In this document: one piece after another, positions 39,166 to 59,485 of the stretch | Position numbering within the stretch: the first letter of the stretch is position 1 | Layout: every line of letters starts with the position of its first letter | Source: a virus | DNA length: 64,000 nucleotides | Reading direction: 5' to 3' (one strand) | Virus record (IMG/VR): IMGVR_UViG_3300037089_000506 | Notes under the pieces: generated by a model | What the model was told of the DNA's origin: nothing | Seen by the model: only the letters and a program-made list of their open reading frames with translations | Database searches by the model: none | Made by a program: the position numbers and the translations under genes

Positions 39166-41052
39166 TTATATTAAACTGCATGATCCCCCAGCACAAGCTA
39201 TCTCTCCCCTTTGATTGGTTCCATCCTCAACTTCAGATACTTGGTTTATGTCAAAATTTCCTATTTTGGAATAGAGTTTATTATACTCTTCCTCTGTGCA
39301 TTCAGTGAAAGGAGCCTGATTATAGCTACCATTATCATAGGGTATAACAGCAATACCATTATAGTAATCTTTATTTTCCCACATCCATTTTCCCACAGAC
39401 TCCCATTCATCATCTTTTACAGAAACAGTTATTGATACATTATTTAGATTAGAGCCCTTTCTATGGCCAGGCCTAATCCAATCCTCATGAATAATCTTCA
39501 TTCGTTCTAATAAATCAAAAGGAGATTCATTTCTGAATACACTACCTTCAGGTGCCTTAATTGGAAACTTAAGTAAAGATTGATTAGATTTTACTAAATC
39601 ATCTTCAACTAAAACAGGATTATTGACATTCATATATTGATAAATAGCTTCGTTTTTTCCAGCTATAATTCTACGAATATAAAAAGGTGAGTGCCATGCA
39701 TGAATACCGGAGGATGTTCCTAGAACTGAAGAAGTTGTTCCCTCTGGTTTTACACAGGTAGTTCTAGCAGCTTTATTTATTCCTATTAATTTAGCTATAC
39801 GGGCATTCTCTTTTAAAATAATTTCAGCCCCTTGCTGTCTATCAATATTCTTCATAAACCCATTGGAAGCAATTCCTGTCATTGAGACTCCAATTAATGC
39901 CTCTTTTTCTGTAGTTTCTCTCCAACAATCCCTAAGATAATGAAAATCAGTATACCCTGCTTGTATGGTTCCTATAAAAGCTGCTGCCCTACAACGATTA
40001 TTAAAATCTTCTTGAGTTATAATATCTCCTGCATTCATCGTAGTTACATTACAGAATTGATTAGCCCGAAGTCCAATTTCAACACAAGGATTACACCCCC
40101 AATCTTTATCATTAGTAAAATAAACCCCAGGTTCACCACTATGAGCTAGTTCTGCTATTTTCCACAGAGCAAAAAAATCTTCTTTGGTTACTTTATGTCT
40201 TACTATAACAGCAGAATTATTAGCCCTACCCCGTTGTGGATTCAGTTCTGACCAGTTACCATATTTAGCTGTAAGCATCTCCTCATCATCAAGATTAAAT
40301 AATGAAATCATTGCAGCCCTGCGAATACCACCAGAAAGAACAGCGTCTGCAATATGACATTGAATATCATGAACCTCTATAGGTTTTAATTTTGTATTAT
40401 TACCTCTATCTTGGATAGCATTATCTAATATTTTTCTAATATTATGAACACAGTCTTTAAGAGGTTGAGGACCAGGAGCTTTACCACCTGAGGTAACTAA
40501 TCTAGCGCCCTTTGACCTAATATCCCTATAATCGAATTCTATCTCTCTGGTACCCTCAAAGTAGGATTTCATTAGCATTTTTATTGTATCTGCCCATCCT
40601 GTAATGTCATCTGTAATAAGAAATCGTTTTCGTCTCTCCTGTCCTTTTATCTTTATATCCCCACGTAAAGCAGGTAATTTGTCTATATGATGCTTCTGTA
40701 CTGAATACCCTACACCTGTTCCTCCTAAAAGTAGAAACATAGTTTCATTAAAAGCTTCAACAGCGTCCATAGGTAAATAACAACAATTATACATTCTATT
40801 AGGGCTCAATTCTATTGGCTTTCCAGCAAATTGTAATGCCCTCATTGAAGGCAATACCTTTTTTTCATATACAAGCTTAAATACTTCCCTAATTTCTTCT
40901 TCTAAAAGTGGGTACTTTCTAATATGCATATCCACATTCCTAGATACAATCTCTTCCCAGTTTTCTCTTCTTCCTTTTTCTGGTAAATACTTAGCATATT
41001 TCATATGTACAATAATATCAGAAAATATATCTTTAGACCTATCTTCGCTCAT
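39166..41052 (-). CDS. nrdJ: Class II (adenosylcobalamin-dependent) ribonucleotide reductase
   Basis: LPSMRALQFAG, NCC, GVGYSV, SGGIRRAAMI, NPCVEI, CVKPEGTTS, C-terminal CAGGSC redox pair. Confidence 0.92.
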   Translation of the reverse strand: MSEDRSKDIFSDIIVHMKYAKYLPEKGRRENWEEIVSRNVDMHIRKYPLLEEEIREVFKLVYEKKVLPSMRALQFAGKPIELSPNRMYNCCYLPMDAVEAFNETMFLLLGGTGVGYSVQKHHIDKLPALRGDIKIKGQERRKRFLITDDITGWADTIKMLMKSYFEGTREIEFDYRDIRSKGARLVTSGGKAPGPQPLKDCVHNIRKILDNAIQDRGNNTKLKPIEVHDIQCHIADAVLSGGIRRAAMISLFNLDDEEMLTAKYGNWSELNPQRGRANNSAVIVRHKVTKEDFFALWKIAELAHSGEPGVYFTNDKDWGCNPCVEIGLRANQFCNVTTMNAGDIITQEDFNNRCRAAAFIGTIQAGYTDFHYLRDCWRETTEKEALIGVSMTGIASNGFMKNIDRQQGAEIILKENARIAKLIGINKAARTTCVKPEGTTSSVLGTSSGIHAWHSPFYIRRIIAGKNEAIYQYMNVNNPVLVEDDLVKSNQSLLKFPIKAPEGSVFRNESPFDLLERMKIIHEDWIRPGHRKGSNLNNVSITVSVKDDEWESVGKWMWENKDYYNGIAVIPYDNGSYNQAPFTECTEEEYNKLYSKIGNFDINQVSEVEDGTNQRGEIACAGGSCSLI

Positions 41053-43518: not shown

Positions 43519-43719
43519 TCACCATCTCTCTACATGAGACAAGTCTAGTGGTTTTTCAACATGACTATTCTTTATATAAACAGTACAACCTATACCATTT
43601 GGAATAAACAAATATTTAAACTTTCCTTCATCTCCATATAATTCTTTTATTCTTTATTTCCATTACTCAGGTTCCTTTTCCTGTTCTTCATCTAATTTAA
43701 AACAATATGTATTTTTTAA
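43519..43719 (-). pseudogene. Degraded small gene with no start codon and two in-frame TAA
   Basis: Frame reads LKNTYCFKLDEEQEKEPE*WK*RIKELYGDEGKFKYLFIPNGIGCTVYIKNSHVEKPLDLSHVERW*; TAA at 43663-43665 and 43654-43656. Confidence 0.55.
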
Positions 43720-43921
43720 GCACCCTCACTTCATCCTCGGCTTTCTCGGCACGCTCCCGCTCGGCGGCAAGCTGAGATTGCACGAAGCGATCAATCATAA
43801 CACTGGCCAAATAGATCTGTTCAAATTCCTCGTTAGCGTTACCCGCAAGTGATAGCAATTCTGCAATGGATCGTGCCAGTTCTTTTGTGTTTTCGACATT
43901 CACTTCGTACTTGTCGCTCAT
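43697..43921 (-). CDS. Hypothetical protein in the GC-rich island
   Basis: SD AAGGAGG; ATGA coupling; C-terminal coiled coil LAAERERAEKAE. Confidence 0.65.
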   Translation of the reverse strand: MSDKYEVNVENTKELARSIAELLSLAGNANEEFEQIYLASVMIDRFVQSQLAAERERAEKAEDEVRVLKKYILF

Positions 43922-44485
43922 CGCTCTTCCTCCTTGGCAACCAGCACATACGACGAATACAGCTCGATGCCTTCCGGTTCTGATTTGTATTCAGCTCGCC
44001 AAGTTCGTGCCGCTTCCTCAATGGACTTAGCGACGACGCAATGTATTTGCGAGTGCAGACCCGTTCCTGTTATGCGGTATACTTTCATCATTTCTATTCC
44101 TCCTTGGCGCTCTCGGGATACTTTTGAGGATTAGAAGCAAATGCTTCCTGCTTAATCTCGGCATCCGAGGGTGGAAACGTCTTGGCGTTCTCAGTGGGGC
44201 GGGAGGCGAGAAGGGTGTCTAGGTCCTTGCGCTTGATATATTCGCCCTCACCTTTGGGGTAAATAGCCATCCATCCGTCGCCTTTTATGCGGACATAATC
44301 ATATCCCTCAATCTTTAACTCCTCCCCGCTCTCCGCTCCGCTCGGGGGCTCGGCGTCGAGCTTGGGCTTGGCGTCGTCGAGGGCATACCAAGCATGCCGT
44401 AGGTCAATATCCACTGCATCCAAAGTATCAGCGTCGCCTAAGTGCTCTAATGCAAGGGAGACAAATGCCTTCGCTCTGTCAATGG
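43720..44485. mobile_element. GC-rich horizontally acquired island (three small ORFs)
   Basis: Counted 33/60 GC at 43921-43980 and 41/60 at 44341-44400 versus 13/60 at 43561-43620. Confidence 0.75.
43918..44091 (-). CDS. Hypothetical protein in the GC-rich island (57 aa)
   Basis: MMKVYRITGTGLHSQIHCVVAKSIEEAARTW...; SD GAGG. Confidence 0.6.
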   Translation of the reverse strand: MMKVYRITGTGLHSQIHCVVAKSIEEAARTWRAEYKSEPEGIELYSSYVLVAKEEER

Positions 44486-44510
44486 CATTATCTTTTAGTT
44501 TTGCTAACAT
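44094..44510 (-). CDS. Hypothetical protein in the GC-rich island
   Basis: 138 aa; start overlaps the polymerase stop. Confidence 0.6.
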   Translation of the reverse strand: MLAKLKDNAIDRAKAFVSLALEHLGDADTLDAVDIDLRHAWYALDDAKPKLDAEPPSGAESGEELKIEGYDYVRIKGDGWMAIYPKGEGEYIKRKDLDTLLASRPTENAKTFPPSDAEIKQEAFASNPQKYPESAKEE

Positions 44511-46576
44511 AATATATCTCCTTCATTAACCTCTTCAGCATTTACTTTCATTACCTTCCCTCCCCGTTGAATCTTTACCTGCTCATGTGGAAAATATACT
44601 TTTCCATCTAAATGAATTTCTTCTAGAGAGAATTTTACATCCTTACAAAAGATAGAGAAACCCGTTTTACTATGAATATCAACATCAGGATTTTCTTTGA
44701 AAGCTTTCATTAATACAGGGTCTTTAGAATCAATAGCTGCTAAACGAATTTGCATTGACTTATAATCCAAAGTTGTAAGATAATATTTCTTTATATCAGG
44801 GGTAGTTAACACCTGCTTAAACAGTTCTGCTTTTATTGAGGAAGAAGGAATTTGTTGTGGATTAGGATCATGAGCACCATTTCTGTATGTAGACATTAGC
44901 ATTACTGAATAGGTAGGATGAATACGATTAGTACCATCTTCATGAGGGGTTAAATGTGGCCTCCAGCCTTTCTTCTCATTGTTAGGAAGCCCCATAAATG
45001 TCTTTTGGAGTGTAAGTAGGCTCCTCATGTTCTGAATCACTGTAGCCTCATTATAACCCCTCTGAGCCCATCTTTCCAATTCCTCATCACCCGTCTTATA
45101 CCATCCATTTTTTGTTCTGCCAAGACAAGGCCATTTCAAACCTTCAAGTATCTCTCCAAGTTGTTTTCCTGAGTCAAGTTCGTCTTTCTCTATATCTCCA
45201 TTACCTCCAAATAAGTCGTTAAATTCAGAAGTATAGGCTGATGCTGGAATCATTAATGCCTTACGTAAAGGTTCCTTCAACTCAAGAATTTCCTGTTGGA
45301 GCAACAAAGAATTTATATTCCATTTATTGATATCAACACAAAAACCATTATACTCAATCTGAGTAAAGAGGTTCTGATAGGGTATGATTACTTGTTCATA
45401 AAAGTCTCGTACCCTCCACCACCCAGGCTTAGGGGGAGGAAATTGGATATCTTGTTGTGTTAATTGCTCCTGCATAGTTTCTTCTATTCTATAAGCGTAG
45501 ATGGCATCTTTAGCAGCATATGAAGGTAGTATAGGTATATCAAGATAAGTTTTGGGCCTAAAGTTCTGGATATATAAGTCTAAATTATGATCATAGCCAC
45601 CAGCATCGGTATAATAATACGCTAAAGATTTTTGTCCATTGAATCGCATTTCATTTAAAAGATGTCCGAGCTGAAGATTATCTGAATGTGTATAAGCATT
45701 AGTAATTCCATTATGTATCAAAAATTTATCATCAAATTTACTATTAGTTCCTATTTGATATTTATCTTTTAACATCAAGTTTAACTCTTCTTTATTCACT
45801 AGCTCCCAGGGGATATAAAAACCTGTAATACCATCAAAAGATAGAGTAATACAACCAATTCTATCACGATAAAAATTTAATCCACTTGTCTCTAAATCCT
45901 TTGAGACTTTAGCATATCCTTTTGATATAGCATAAACATCTTCCCATCCATTATGATTATAAACTTCAACTATTTGTGTTCGTTGAATTGGGGGCTGCTT
46001 TGATAAAAAATCATAATGTTCTTTTATATATCTAAATTGATAATTCATAAACTCTTTGCGGCTACAGTCTGTAGGTAAATAGCAATAATCCATCCACTGC
46101 ATTAAAGTAGTAGCAAAAGAATCTATAGGAAATATGTATGTACATGTTTGTGGGGCAAAGAAATATGTTTTATTAAAAATATAATCATAAAAACATTCTA
46201 TAGATAAATTATCATCTTCAGTTATTGCTTGTAAAGCATAGCCAGAAGTGATAATAACAGTATTGTCTCTGATATATTGCTTGAAATCAGAATGATTCTC
46301 CTGATAGAACTTATAGACTCCGTGCTTCTGTATTTGTAGGAGGGGGACATTAATTTTAGTGGCTACAACAACATCATAATCAAACCCAGGAAGTTTTTGT
46401 TTGAATATCTCCTCAATAAAATGTTTGAAAGCATCTCTATTCCCTGGTATATTTTCTAGTAAAAGTAATATATGAGCATTACCATAGGTATGTAATGATG
46501 CTATGACTATATTTTGTATAATTTTATCTTGATTTTTAGGCTTTATTGCTATATCTACTCCGAACTCAAAACTCAT
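44504..46576 (-). CDS. Family A DNA polymerase, N-terminal part only (degenerate UDG-like N-term, 3'-5' exonuclease, motif A; motifs B and C absent)
   Basis: ExoI KDLETSGL, ExoII NSKFD, ExoIII YAAKDA, PNPQQIP, motif A DYKSMQIRLAA, DIHSKTG; ends GDILC*. Confidence 0.85.
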   Translation of the reverse strand: MSFEFGVDIAIKPKNQDKIIQNIVIASLHTYGNAHILLLLENIPGNRDAFKHFIEEIFKQKLPGFDYDVVVATKINVPLLQIQKHGVYKFYQENHSDFKQYIRDNTVIITSGYALQAITEDDNLSIECFYDYIFNKTYFFAPQTCTYIFPIDSFATTLMQWMDYCYLPTDCSRKEFMNYQFRYIKEHYDFLSKQPPIQRTQIVEVYNHNGWEDVYAISKGYAKVSKDLETSGLNFYRDRIGCITLSFDGITGFYIPWELVNKEELNLMLKDKYQIGTNSKFDDKFLIHNGITNAYTHSDNLQLGHLLNEMRFNGQKSLAYYYTDAGGYDHNLDLYIQNFRPKTYLDIPILPSYAAKDAIYAYRIEETMQEQLTQQDIQFPPPKPGWWRVRDFYEQVIIPYQNLFTQIEYNGFCVDINKWNINSLLLQQEILELKEPLRKALMIPASAYTSEFNDLFGGNGDIEKDELDSGKQLGEILEGLKWPCLGRTKNGWYKTGDEELERWAQRGYNEATVIQNMRSLLTLQKTFMGLPNNEKKGWRPHLTPHEDGTNRIHPTYSVMLMSTYRNGAHDPNPQQIPSSSIKAELFKQVLTTPDIKKYYLTTLDYKSMQIRLAAIDSKDPVLMKAFKENPDVDIHSKTGFSIFCKDVKFSLEEIHLDGKVYFPHEQVKIQRGGKVMKVNAEEVNEGDILC

Positions 46577-46582
46577 ACAAAA

Positions 46583-46611
46583 AGAATACTACAGAAAGAC
46601 TCAAATGTCAA
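46583..46611 (-). promoter_or_regulatory. Sigma70 promoter TTGACA-17-TATTCT, 6 nt before the polymerase ATG (leaderless)
   Basis: -35 at 46606-46611, -10 at 46583-46588, then TTTTGT ATG; no SD. Confidence 0.75.
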
Positions 46612-46754: not shown

Positions 46755-49553
46755 TTATAAATTAAAGTCTGTATCGTCGGAGAGAGAAAATAAAAGTACT
46801 AAGTTTAATACTGTAGTTATAGTCTCTTTAGGATATTGTTCCATATTCAAGAATTCCTTAACTATCATATCATACATTTTTTCAACTTTATTCCTATAAT
46901 TACTTGACTTCCACTCAGAACTAAATTCATTAGCCCATTCCTTTAAAGAGTCATCAGCAGCCTGAGATTCAGATTCCTGTGCTGCCTCTTCCCTTTGTTC
47001 TTCAGACCAAGCTTCAATATCATTCTTATCTATACCCATACCTGTACCTTTACAGAATCTACATTTATTTCCTATTTTTTGGGCTAATACTTCCATTGCA
47101 GTATCATCCATAGGAATATAAGTACCATCTTCACGTTTCTTTCCATATACAGATATAAATTCATTAACGAGATTAGGGTAATCACTTTGTAATTTACCTA
47201 ATGCAGTAGCATATTGATTTTCATCCAGTTCTGTTGTCCAATCATTATCATTATCTTTAGCATAGATGGCATAACCAGTACCATCACAATAAGAGCATGG
47301 GTCAGCTTCAGATAATAATGCTGGTTCTGTATCCTTCAAGAATTCCCATGGGTTATCATAACCATATTTATATGAATAAGCATCATTACCTGCTGCATCT
47401 TCCCAATAAGTATCATTGAATGCCATATAATAAAATTTATCATCAAGGATATCAGTAAGGTTTTCTATATCAGAATCTATCATAGCAGATGTAAAACTTT
47501 TTAATGCTAATTTTGATTTTAACACTTCAAATTTTTCTGGATTTGTACATATTTCTACTACTATTTTCTTTTTATCAGGAGCGAATACAAATGCTTTAGT
47601 ATGCTCATAAATAGCATTAGATATAGGCTTAGGTAGAGCATTAGCAAACTTAGTATGATTACCAACATCCTCATCTTCCTCATCCATCCATTGATTTGAT
47701 TCTAGATGTATTTGCCACTTATCAGGAGTAGAATATTTCTGGGTACCACCAACTTCAGTTGGATGCTTTTTTATTATGATAATCAGTGGACCCTTATTAT
47801 TATAATAATTGAACTTATTCATTCCAGGATCAGTATATGTTGTACACCATTTTGTATTAGCTCCATATTTACATGCTGCTTTCATTGTCAATGGGCGTAC
47901 TACTAGCCATTGTGAGTCTTCATACCACTTCTCAGCTTCGGTAGGGTCTATAGGCTCTTTAGCCTCAATTTCTTCTAATTGGTATCTATGCACATCTATT
48001 AATTGGGATAAGTCTCTGAAGGATTTAATATTCATTATATTGTATAATGGAGTTGTATCTTTTAGTGTACCTTCAGGAGTTGCAGATAGTAATTTCTTGT
48101 TTTTTAACTTGGTGTATTTCTTTAAGTCCTCAGTAACTTTAGGGTAATCTTCCTGTAAAAATCTTACTAATCTTTTATCATAAAAATAGCCTAATTGTTC
48201 AGCACCACCATAACTAAGAGGATGATAGGTTATAATATGGTCTCTAGCCCTTCCTTCATAGGTTTCATGCCCTTCTTTTTTAAGTACTTCTAATGCATCC
48301 AAAAGTTGAGGAATTCTAAAGTCCTTCATAAAACATCTTATTATCCATACAGCATATTTTCTATCAAGGGTAGGATCAATATCACATAAGAATTCAAATA
48401 AATGAGGGGATAGAATCTCATTATATTTACCATAATTGATAGCTTCAGTGAAATCTATACTCTTTCTTTTTTTAGTTTGTACATAACGAAGTATTCTTTG
48501 TTTTTCCTTTGTAAAGCTTACCATATCTATATATTCATCAAGCCATGACCAATTTTTATTACATAATTCAATATAAGCATTAATCTTTTCAGGGAATCTA
48601 TCAATATCATCTTGTATATCCATAAAACCATAATTACTTATATCTATCATCTTTCCCATTTCAGGGCGTTTTTCAGAAGAACCATAAAAATATCTACTAT
48701 TAGTATTATATGGTAATCCTAACTCTCGTGCTACCCTTCCATGAGAAGTAATATCACCTCTAAATGCTATTAATTCTTTTGTTTCAGAATCTGCTATGAA
48801 TTTCAATCCAGTTTCTTGAGAGGATTTCCATAGTAATATAATTTCTTCAGGGGTAGGATTTTTCATTATATTTACTCTAGTACTATTACCATTTCTATCT
48901 ATATATATTGTTTTTAGACAATATTCTTTTAGTGTATTTTCATTTATATTCCTACTTCTTTTTGAATACTTACCAGTATTAGAATAAGCTGATTTTATTT
49001 GAAAGGGACTAAATACGCAATAAGAAATTCCTTCCCCTTCCCATTCATTTTCGTAGATAAGCCCATCATAACCATAGTGCTGTATTAAAGTAACAATGCT
49101 TTTTAAGCATTTCTGTATTGCTTTAGATGAATCTTGAACAGCAGTATTCCTAGCATATACTTCTTCCATATACTTTTCTATTTTAGCGGATAAATCAAAT
49201 AAAGCATAGGATAATTCTTCATTTTGTTCCTTACATGAATCACCTATAATAGTAGCTACTGTCTCAGGCTCATTATCGCTTTGAGTGTCTTCAATATAGA
49301 GAGGATTTACTATTCTTAAATAGCATACATACATAGAGGGGTTTGTTGTTCCCTTTTCTCTTGATATAGAATCTAATCTCTTATTAGATTGCTCTGGTTT
49401 AGAACCAAAATGAATGCCAATACCACTAAACTTGAAGGCAGTAAAGCCTCCTGCCTTAGTAACATGGTAGCAACGAAGGGGTAAACCAGCATCATCAACT
49501 ACTTTAGAGTCACCAAACCAAGATATAAAGTTAGGGTTTTGTAGAATGTCCAT
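46755..49553 (-). CDS. Polyvalent protein: N-terminal ADP-ribosyltransferase-like (ART-PolyVal-type) domain, PcfJ-like domain, DnaJ-type zinc finger
   Basis: NPNFISWFGDSKVVD..CYHVT..GIHFGS..YLRIVNPL..GYDGLIY..VFSPFQIKSA..NTGKYS; YGANTKWCTT..FNYY; CSYCDGTG/CRFCKGTG. Confidence 0.7.
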   Translation of the reverse strand: MDILQNPNFISWFGDSKVVDDAGLPLRCYHVTKAGGFTAFKFSGIGIHFGSKPEQSNKRLDSISREKGTTNPSMYVCYLRIVNPLYIEDTQSDNEPETVATIIGDSCKEQNEELSYALFDLSAKIEKYMEEVYARNTAVQDSSKAIQKCLKSIVTLIQHYGYDGLIYENEWEGEGISYCVFSPFQIKSAYSNTGKYSKRSRNINENTLKEYCLKTIYIDRNGNSTRVNIMKNPTPEEIILLWKSSQETGLKFIADSETKELIAFRGDITSHGRVARELGLPYNTNSRYFYGSSEKRPEMGKMIDISNYGFMDIQDDIDRFPEKINAYIELCNKNWSWLDEYIDMVSFTKEKQRILRYVQTKKRKSIDFTEAINYGKYNEILSPHLFEFLCDIDPTLDRKYAVWIIRCFMKDFRIPQLLDALEVLKKEGHETYEGRARDHIITYHPLSYGGAEQLGYFYDKRLVRFLQEDYPKVTEDLKKYTKLKNKKLLSATPEGTLKDTTPLYNIMNIKSFRDLSQLIDVHRYQLEEIEAKEPIDPTEAEKWYEDSQWLVVRPLTMKAACKYGANTKWCTTYTDPGMNKFNYYNNKGPLIIIIKKHPTEVGGTQKYSTPDKWQIHLESNQWMDEEDEDVGNHTKFANALPKPISNAIYEHTKAFVFAPDKKKIVVEICTNPEKFEVLKSKLALKSFTSAMIDSDIENLTDILDDKFYYMAFNDTYWEDAAGNDAYSYKYGYDNPWEFLKDTEPALLSEADPCSYCDGTGYAIYAKDNDNDWTTELDENQYATALGKLQSDYPNLVNEFISVYGKKREDGTYIPMDDTAMEVLAQKIGNKCRFCKGTGMGIDKNDIEAWSEEQREEAAQESESQAADDSLKEWANEFSSEWKSSNYRNKVEKMYDMIVKEFLNMEQYPKETITTVLNLVLLFSLSDDTDFNL

Positions 49554-49558
49554 TTACA

Positions 49559-49564
49559 ATTAGT
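49559..49564 (-). promoter_or_regulatory. Late promoter motif ACTAAT (leaderless)
   Basis: ACTAAT TGTAA ATG. Confidence 0.7.
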
Positions 49565-50417
49565 CTGAATAATAAGCCCAATGAAAGCCACCTGCGGTTT
49601 TCATTTGTCCTGAACAGACTCTGGATACTCTGTTTATTCCTGTTTTATTAAATACATCTGTCATTGAATCATATATAATTCCTGTCTCTATACACATTAT
49701 TTTTTTAGCATTTAGAGAGGGCTTACCTGTTTTGATTCCTTTGTTCCAAGGTATTCTTCCTATCCCAACCTGTCTAAGTTTTTCAAGTTCCTCTGGTGTT
49801 CTTTTTCTATTTTTTTGTGCTATACTTATAGCTTGTTTCTGCTCTTTGGTAATATGCCCACCATAATTCCAGTGTTTGTCCCCTTTGATTGCTCTTAGTT
49901 TTTCTAAAGTTTCTTCTGAAGCTTTATACCCTTTTCTTGAGGCTATAAGTTTTTGCTTATTCTCCTCAGACATTACTCTACCTTCACAGTTCTTATTACC
50001 CTTTAATGATTCAGAATATTTTGCTACACGTTCATCAGTTTTGTCTAAGCCCTTATTCCAAGCTGGGGTACCCTTTTTAGATTCACTTATTTTCTTACGA
50101 GTTTCAATAGATTTAGGGCCACTTCCCCCATCACCACCAGTAGTAAGATTATATCCAAATTCAGAATTATTACTTTTATATTCAGCAATATATTTTTTTT
50201 CTAATTCAGCAAGCTGTTCTTTATTACTACACTCTTCAATAACAGTCCAAGTAAAATTTTCAGCACCATATTTTCTCATAGCTGAGTGAAAATAAGTTCC
50301 TTTTCCTATTCTTGCTTTATAAAGATGATCCTTTTTTCTAATTTCCATAGATTTAGATGCTTTTCCAATATAAATTTTATTATTTATATTATTCTCTACC
50401 TTATATATTTCTCCCAT
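49560..50417 (-). CDS. Free-standing GIY-YIG homing endonuclease with NUMOD3 and NUMOD1-type domains
   Basis: EIYKVENNINNKIYIG..R..H; GYNLTTGG; S.ETRKKISES, PWNKG repeats; KTAGGFHWAY. Confidence 0.88.
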   Translation of the reverse strand: MGEIYKVENNINNKIYIGKASKSMEIRKKDHLYKARIGKGTYFHSAMRKYGAENFTWTVIEECSNKEQLAELEKKYIAEYKSNNSEFGYNLTTGGDGGSGPKSIETRKKISESKKGTPAWNKGLDKTDERVAKYSESLKGNKNCEGRVMSEENKQKLIASRKGYKASEETLEKLRAIKGDKHWNYGGHITKEQKQAISIAQKNRKRTPEELEKLRQVGIGRIPWNKGIKTGKPSLNAKKIMCIETGIIYDSMTDVFNKTGINRVSRVCSGQMKTAGGFHWAYYSD

Positions 50418-57985: not shown

Positions 57986-59485
57986 ATGAATGTTTTAGAT
58001 AATCCCAATTTTATTCAATGGTTTGGGCAAAGCAAAATAAAAGATAAAGAGGGATATCCTATAGTATGCTATAAATTTGTTCCAAAAGAAACTAATAGTA
58101 TTGAAGTGCCTAATGGTTTAGAACAAAAAGCTATTTTTTTAACATATAGTAAAAAAGCTGCATTACTACGGGGTGGGAATGTAGTACCTCTTTATGTAAA
58201 GATGGAGATGCCCTTTGATATTAGCAATAGGAAGAAAAGTAGAGATTATATTGAATGGAGATTGAAGCATAATACTATGGAAAGTGTTATTGATTATGCT
58301 AAAAGAACAGGTAGAGATGGTATTATTAATAATTCTCTAAATGAATTAATGGTATTTACTTCTAATCAAGTGAAATCAGCAGATAAAAATAATGGTGAAT
58401 TCTCTATAAAATCTAATAATTTATATGAAAGTAGTGCAATCCCTGAAATAGACCCTTATCTGATAGATACTCCTATTTCAAAAAAAATTATTAATCAATA
58501 TGAGATTACTGACGAACCTCTAGATGCTTTTTTCATTCTGGCTGATGGACAATTATTAGATGGCTCTGGTAGGAATATTGGTAATAGAAATGGTGGTAGA
58601 ATTTTAGATCATCATGAAATAGGGAGTTTTGTTAAATTGTTCCAAGATAACTATCATAAAAGAATGCTATATGCAATGAAGAGGTCAGGGGCAATCAGAC
58701 TGGATGCAAAAATAGGCTATATTGCTACTGTGGGTAGACCTAATGGAGCGCAGATTAGAGCTATATTGAATATGTTCCATGGAAAAGAAATAAGAATAGA
58801 CTATTATTCATCTTCTTTAGACTGGATTACAGGACAAATGATACCCGCCACTAAAGAGCAATTAGAATGGTTTTTTAAGTATCCTTTAGACCCTCTATCC
58901 CAGTATACAGAAATGGCATACCCCGCCGGATTTAGTATGGAAACTCTTTTAAGCTTCTCTTCCTATTCTGATAGAATAAAATATGCTAATAAAAATTTAG
59001 AATATATTAATCATGGATCGTCACGGACAGTATTTGGTGTTGATGAGAAAAAAGTATTAAAAGTAGCAAGGAATGATAGGGGATTAGCACAAAATGGGGC
59101 TGAAGTAAGATTTAGTAAAAAACAAATACCAATATGTGCCCGTGTATTTAAGTGGGCAGACGATAATAGTTTTATTGAAATGGAAAGGGCAGAACCTATC
59201 GACGATATGGCTATATTCGAATATGGCACAGGTATTACTAGTATGTTCCTTTTTCATGAATATTTAGGAGAACTTTCATATAGAGAAGATAAGGTTAATA
59301 TAAAAGGTTTTACTGATAATCCCTGGGTTCAAGAATTAGTAAAATTTGCTAAAGATAATAAGTATGAATTACCAGGGGATTTTACTACTCTATCTGCCTA
59401 TGGTATTGTTCATAGAAAAGAAGGATGGAGAGTAGTTATTATTGACTATGGTCTTACTCCTTCGGTGCATAACGATTATTATTAA
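57986..59485 (+). CDS. Polyvalent protein: ART-like N-term, unknown middle domain, C-terminal protein-kinase-like domain
   Basis: NPNFIQWFGQSKIKD..VFTSNQVKSA..NNGEFS (paralogous to the 46755 N-term); HGSSRTVF..VLKVA..QNGAE..GDF..AYG..IDYG. Confidence 0.7.
   Translation: MNVLDNPNFIQWFGQSKIKDKEGYPIVCYKFVPKETNSIEVPNGLEQKAIFLTYSKKAALLRGGNVVPLYVKMEMPFDISNRKKSRDYIEWRLKHNTMESVIDYAKRTGRDGIINNSLNELMVFTSNQVKSADKNNGEFSIKSNNLYESSAIPEIDPYLIDTPISKKIINQYEITDEPLDAFFILADGQLLDGSGRNIGNRNGGRILDHHEIGSFVKLFQDNYHKRMLYAMKRSGAIRLDAKIGYIATVGRPNGAQIRAILNMFHGKEIRIDYYSSSLDWITGQMIPATKEQLEWFFKYPLDPLSQYTEMAYPAGFSMETLLSFSSYSDRIKYANKNLEYINHGSSRTVFGVDEKKVLKVARNDRGLAQNGAEVRFSKKQIPICARVFKWADDNSFIEMERAEPIDDMAIFEYGTGITSMFLFHEYLGELSYREDKVNIKGFTDNPWVQELVKFAKDNKYELPGDFTTLSAYGIVHRKEGWRVVIIDYGLTPSVHNDYY

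Follow-up and report, generated by a model that had tools for sequence, protein, structure and literature searches.

The polymerase gene of the window, a term used here for the whole 64,000-nucleotide stretch of viral DNA analysed, is supported by sequence comparisons as a naturally split gene of a family A DNA polymerase (PolA), whose partner gene would be located elsewhere in the genome. We consider it likely that the product belongs to a two-piece phage PolA, with the halves docked non-covalently into one active site by the remnant of half an intein (Hint) domain. The existence of the partner gene in the window's own phage is argued from its relatives.

Organization of the polymerase ORF

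The ORF, its domains, and its immediate flanks include the following features:

46583-46611, minus strand: promoter-like sequence TTGACA-17-TATTCT, a consensus match only
44504-46576, minus strand: N-terminal half of a split family A DNA polymerase, 690 aa plus stop codon
45461-45958, minus strand: 3'-5' exonuclease domain, aa 207-372 (Pfam PF01612, E 6e-8)
44636-45181, minus strand: polymerase domain through the early fingers, aa 466-647 (PF00476, profile positions 31-199 of 381, E 2e-20)
44735-44773, minus strand: motif A of the palm, with the catalytic Asp, TLDYKSMQIRLAA, aa 602-614
44507-44632, minus strand: acidic beta tail of 42 aa, aa 649-690, with a degenerate block B (FPHE) and block N4
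43697-44510, minus strand: GC-rich block of three small, translationally coupled ORFs adjoining the polymerase stop

The product, with NEGDILC as its C-terminus, is made up of exonuclease, thumb, palm motif A, and the first finger helices, followed by the tail. Exonuclease motifs I (aa 226-233), II (aa 278-286), and III (aa 353-362) were located within the exonuclease domain and a DIHSKT helix at aa 633-638, so that the Pfam domains and the located motifs confirmed the presence of the exonuclease motifs and of motif A announced in the original prediction. Motif B (RxxxKxxNFGxxYG) and motif C (HDE/HDS) are missing from the polypeptide, with the PF00476 match reaching only profile position 199, and the ORF therefore encodes a subunit and not a whole enzyme. 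Across the six frames of the window, no motif B/C half was detected by tblastn with the C-terminal portions of fused relatives as queries, by an unfiltered search with an HMM built on 17 distant C halves, or by HMM and tblastn searches based on 31 stand-alone C halves, in agreement with the earlier claim that both motifs are absent from the window. The sequences TYRNG and SMQIR, which had been regarded as deviant, are indeed unlike TGRLS and QIELR, yet they represent the norm for their own clade (alignment A1).

Upstream of the gene, the 3' end of the promoter-like sequence lies 6 nt from the polymerase ATG, with no Shine-Dalgarno sequence between them, and it is the sole site of this kind preceding a real ORF in the window. 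It is thus possible, judging from this arrangement, that the polymerase mRNA is leaderless and starts from this site. In the promoter scan, the number of promoter-like sites in the window equalled the shuffle expectation.

The split is conserved among relatives

A search of 5.8 billion proteins retrieved about 34 proteins of 677 to 727 aa with 31-74% identity to the window ORF and 100% query coverage, these full-coverage N-half relatives being drawn from ENA, JGI, Logan, and NCBI. With the IMG/VR loci included, around 40 relatives (31-75% identical) present the stop position and the tail as in the window, the tail being common to the rows of alignment A1 and to loci L001, L002, L004, L005, L017, and L034. 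Among 30 related loci from IMG/VR, four arrangements of PolA were found:

Arrangement 1: continuous PolA genes
Arrangement 2: one gene between the halves (L005, L008, L022)
Arrangement 3: halves 4 kb apart (L004)
Arrangement 4: N half with no C half inside 10 kb (L001, L002, L017)

The ORF between the halves in L005 had no Pfam or PHROG match, and in L004 a GIY-YIG gene is placed immediately ahead of the C half.

The contig carrying L001 (G001) is a complete phage genome of 305,833 bp with terminal repeats, in which both halves could be located:

90.7-91.3 kb, minus strand: N half, PolA profile positions 3-197, in a 697-aa frame
299.0-299.6 kb, plus strand: C half, PolA profile positions 192-358, in a 336-aa frame

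The two halves of G001 are thus separated by 208 kb on opposite strands, and no further PolA copies were detected in that genome. Its C half is flanked by primase-like and ligase-like genes, as read by eye from the translations.

A search with this C half identified 31 stand-alone C-half proteins, mostly of about 266 to 311 aa and with PF00476 as their only domain, several of them encoded on contigs of 190-305 kb. These proteins begin with a conserved basic head of 13 residues (consensus MLKIKKxTIRKKI) that leads directly into [ST]LEEF. In L033 and L004, a Shine-Dalgarno sequence and a start codon were found upstream of the head. In the case of L033 (1453-2409, the C half of the 306-kb genome above), the called gene P0048, of 291 aa, begins 27 codons late, and a TTG start after AAGGAG recovers the conserved MLKI head. 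The original prediction had offered either a split polymerase or a gene broken by the downstream island, and its first branch is the one supported here, as the motif B/C half exists as a separate gene family in the relatives.

The tail derives from an intein

Alignment with full-length homologues identified the tail as part of an insert. Plain fused relatives pass from the DxHSxT helix to [ST]LEEF...RxxAKxxNFG without any insert, and five fused ones (P0029, P0229, P0231, P0232, and L023) carry about 55-60 aa between the DxHSxT helix and [ST]LEEF. The tail of the split genes equals the first ~42 residues of this insert, and the head of the C halves equals its remainder.

For comparison with inteins, 173 N-intein domains were gathered by profile search of 1.84 billion proteins. 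An hhalign comparison of the tails with these domains gave a probability of 89.4% (P 2e-6), with tail columns 2-46 on N-intein columns 59-99, FPHE on the TPDH of block B, and the end of the tail on block N4; among the controls, the reversed template reached P 0.015, and 30 column shuffles reached P 0.028 at best. A tail HMM built from 36 tails was also run against 4815 ORFs, and its top matches outside the family included real N-intein ends, those of the L002 NrdJ (E 0.027) and the L008 PolA (E 0.055), aligned end to end. Single tails searched with a general N-intein HMM fell in the right register with weak scores (best E 0.0096, Z 4815), that of the window tail being not significant, and Pfam did not detect the tail. 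Because single-tail scores are weak, the homology of tail and intein rests on the profile-profile comparison and on the fold. The resemblance to the intein block B region, proposed earlier from the letters alone, was in this way borne out, as was the lack of block A: the tail begins at the level of block B, and no conserved Cys or Ser was found at the junction.

The fold was addressed through the fused relatives. The AlphaFold2 model of P0029, made with an alignment of 70 rows, showed a mean pLDDT of 90.6, with an all-beta insert (residues 659-718, pLDDT 90-96) in which the point equivalent to the split falls immediately ahead of a long strand (705-718). The cropped insert of L023 (70 aa) was modelled with a pLDDT of 84 and the same strand order as in P0029. 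A Foldseek search of the L023 insert against the PDB returned nearly exclusively inteins and Hedgehog Hint domains (TM 0.6-0.68), and weight was given to this near-exclusiveness of the top matches, as all E-values were above 0.1. When the 70-aa insert was compared with 48,161 representative chains, the top 25 matches were all Hint folds (Z from 9.0 to 4.2) and the first other fold appeared at rank 26; this evidence comes from the fused relatives L023 and P0029, and a Z of 9 or below is middling when taken alone. The Hint matches always corresponded to the second half of the splicing domain and spanned the split or endonuclease-insertion site (residues 40-104 in gp41-1, 49-119 in the DnaE-type intein, and 50-419 in the RecA intein).

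Sequence and models together identify the tail as a splicing-dead leftover of an N-intein's second half, with its end at the canonical split-intein position, and the head of the C halves as the equivalent of the first C-intein strand. Relatives within the window's clade hold live split inteins with endonuclease genes between their halves, whose N pieces end like the tail and whose C pieces start like the head.

One such element is seen in L022 (9653-13897), where PolA is interrupted in its motif A region by a split intein whose halves flank a SegE-like GIY-YIG gene. In L008 (4359-8725), motif B holds a complete split intein together with a gene for a TnsA-like endonuclease. The class II NrdJ of L002 (12672-16055) is divided by a complete split intein, its halves enclosing an endonuclease-like ORF of 355 aa; the window has a continuous NrdJ (39166-41052).

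Proposed assembly of the two halves and alternative explanations

The tails carry a mean net charge of -4.2 (n = 36; -3 for the window tail) and the heads one of +4.4 (n = 25). In DnaE-type split inteins, the region that survives here is the one that makes the first electrostatic contact, according to the "capture and collapse" model. We propose that the acidic tail would capture the basic head electrostatically and that the head strand would then complete the small sheet of the tail. The O-helix and motif C of the back subunit would thereby be held against motif A of the front subunit, so that motif A and motifs B/C would make up a composite active site, and no peptide bond would be formed because the blocks needed for splicing (A, F, and G) are missing. 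We infer this role of the remnant in assembly from indirect evidence, namely charge complementarity, conservation, and the strand completion predicted in the fused model; the assembled two-chain enzyme would presumably be the active replicase. With somewhat less confidence, and only slightly in favour, we regard the dead half-Hint domain as having been domesticated into a heterodimerisation module that lets this clade of large phages keep an essential replicase as two genes free to change place within the genome.

At the polymerase stop, the GC content changes from ~32% to 48-56%, and the stop codon is overlapped by the ATG of the next ORF, which confirmed the earlier remark that a GC-rich island starts exactly there. 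The three ORFs of this island showed no Pfam or PHROG match. The nearest relative with DNA available, L034 (2.7 kb; 75% protein and 73% DNA identity), has identical end residues, the same overlapping ATG, and GC-rich DNA (53%) after the stop, although this DNA (L034:1991-2701) codes for a different 178-aa ORF; the island shares with it only 44319-44360 (42 nt, 95%) and 43912-43936 (25 nt, 96%) of the window. By its look, the island is a GC-rich cassette whose content varies while its site stays the same.

Three other explanations were weighed against this proposal. That the island recently truncated PolA, or that the contig was misassembled, leaving a pseudogene fragment, would account for the GC shift at the stop and for the overlap with the first ATG of the island, but such a reading is highly improbable. 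About 40 independent assemblies, down to 31% identity, share the stop position and the tail, a result that led us to reject the earlier suggestion of a gene broken by the island; L034, at 75% identity, ends in the same way ahead of another GC-rich ORF, and no C-half remnant was found in the window past the island by tblastn and two HMMs. Moreover, the tail is under purifying selection: its last 42 codons, compared with those of L034, comprise 27 identical, 9 synonymous, and 6 non-synonymous ones, versus 67, 53, and 38, respectively, in the preceding 158 codons, which makes the tail at least as conserved. The island is no part of the polymerase and no cause of the break. The original prediction had also named, as a finding that would speak against it, homologues with the insert inside a continuous PolA together with a misassembly; the insert does occur in this form in the five fused relatives listed above, whereas the misassembly finds no support in this fused minority because the C-half genes are independent, with ribosome-binding sites and starts of their own. 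Ligation of the halves by an active split intein, through protein trans-splicing, has in its favour that the Hint-derived tail stops at the canonical split site, that the partner has a Ser or Thr at a +1-like position, and that relatives own live split inteins. Nevertheless, we give it hardly any credence. The tail has neither a block A Cys/Ser nucleophile nor an N2 block, the first ~55 residues of an N-intein being gone; the TxxH of block B is reduced to FPHE, with loss of the Thr, in the window's subclade and replaced by FLGGE or FNTFD, without His, in others; and the 13-aa heads of the relatives' partners lack blocks F and G and a terminal Asn, only the +1 Ser/Thr being retained. The whole remnant amounts to ~55 aa, versus ~125 or more in working mini-inteins. 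Trans-splicing is excluded on these grounds (blocks A, F, and G absent, and the size of the remnant), so that of the two modes of assembly offered originally, non-covalent association and trans-splicing, only the former fits the data.

An alternative that deserves more weight, even if it seems rather unlikely to us, accepts that the split is real and takes the Hint remnant as vestigial, or as having a different function, for instance the binding of DNA or of an accessory factor at the fingers, while ordinary fold contacts hold the halves together. Continuous fused relatives that retain the insert are consistent with this idea, as are P0023, which is nested in the split clade and is fused and without insert, and the split PolB and DnaE enzymes known to manage without a clasp (PMC2677866, PMC7824862). 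Against this alternative, the break coincides exactly with the canonical split-intein position within the insert, so that a single strand stays with the partner half; tail and head are oppositely charged throughout the family; and the tail is conserved to the same degree as the catalytic region or above it. We maintain docking by the remnant as the preferred explanation.

Evolution of the split

A quick maximum-likelihood tree, built on the shared N region, united all remnant-bearing genes in a single, fully supported clade. Its members are 38 split genes, 5 fused ones that carry the insert, and 1 plain fused gene (P0023); in the sister clade, fused genes of the plain type predominate, alongside L008 and L005. 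The tree requires at least five changes of state, and splitting or re-fusion therefore occurred repeatedly.

As a separate observation, the polymerases of L006 (9773-12502) and L008 (4359-8725) are near-identical (branch 0.014) and differ by the live split intein and the TnsA-like gene. From the sequences, this pair looks like the consequence of a recent invasion or loss, and it points to ongoing invasion.

Comparison with known systems

Naturally split inteins in "fractured genes" were described by Dassa et al. 2009, with examples such as cyanobacterial DnaE, gp41-1, and NrdJ-1 (PMC2677866). As in those cases, an essential replication gene is broken here at the position where Hint domains are canonically split or receive an endonuclease, with an acidic N piece and a basic C piece as in split inteins, and in relatives L004, L005, L008, and L022 the halves lie side by side with a homing endonuclease, as in the fractured genes. 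The distant halves found here fit step IV of the gene-breaking model of those authors, in which the halves are uncoupled and the endonuclease is lost (PMC2677866). In the window itself, instead of the layout with halves flanking a free-standing homing endonuclease, three GC-rich ORFs and no C half were found downstream. In contrast to the systems of Dassa et al., the Hint domain is reduced here to ~55 aa (blocks B and N4, and one C-intein strand) without catalytic blocks, and PolA was not among their eight enzyme types of fractured loci (PMC2677866).

A second parallel is the NrdA of Aeromonas phage Aeh1, encoded as NrdA-a / mobE / NrdA-b (Crona et al. 2011, PMC3045599), also a phage enzyme that a mobile element has broken up and that is reconstituted with neither RNA nor protein splicing. 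Its short tails arose with the insertion and act as interaction domains for a composite active site (PMC3045599), a role that in our case is predicted for the tail. However, the Aeh1 tails stem from the insertion of a free-standing endonuclease and not from a Hint domain, and the halves are adjacent; here, the element is a degenerate intein, the enzyme a polymerase, and the halves can lie more than 100 kb apart.

Finally, a split minimal DnaE is known from group 2.2 jumbo phages (Iyer et al. 2021, PMC7824862), and split PolB from T4-like phages, phage MIJ3 (PMC6892783), and Methanothermobacter. They share with the present case a catalytic core spread over two polypeptides from separate, sometimes distant genes, but they belong to family C or B, the split intein of MIJ3 is complete, and a dead half-intein at the break is reported in none. 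In the limited literature searched, we found no split family A polymerase of such kind in phages and no dead intein remnants acting as clasps.

If our proposal is correct, inteins of essential genes would have a third fate in addition to continued activity and clean loss, namely decay into a small docking module, and such a module would make the gene split permanent and tolerable. It would explain many "truncated" PolA calls in viral metagenomes, where PolA often serves as a marker gene, and would provide an experimentally testable example of a two-chain polymerase active site, whose assembly might be controlled through separate expression of the halves. In addition, the compact natural pair of 42 plus 13 residues would be a natural counterpart to the engineered inactive split inteins used as affinity pairs, maybe useful for non-covalent protein assembly.

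Genome neighbourhood

The source of the window is a large uncultivated phage. Megablast comparison with phage records yielded no match, nor did an exact 30-mer occur in the viral and metagenome contigs searched. No PHROG match was found for 8 of the 10 other large ORFs of the window that were tested, so this phage is very distant from cultured ones. The polymerase gene adjoins a gene for a 932-aa protein with an ART-PolyVal ADP-ribosyltransferase domain (46755-49553, minus strand), and a second ORF matching the same PHROG is present at 57986-59485 (plus strand). In addition, a 285-aa ORF whose N-terminus appears by eye to be of the GIY-YIG type is located 3 kb upstream of the polymerase gene (49560-50417, minus strand) and may correspond to a free-standing homing endonuclease.
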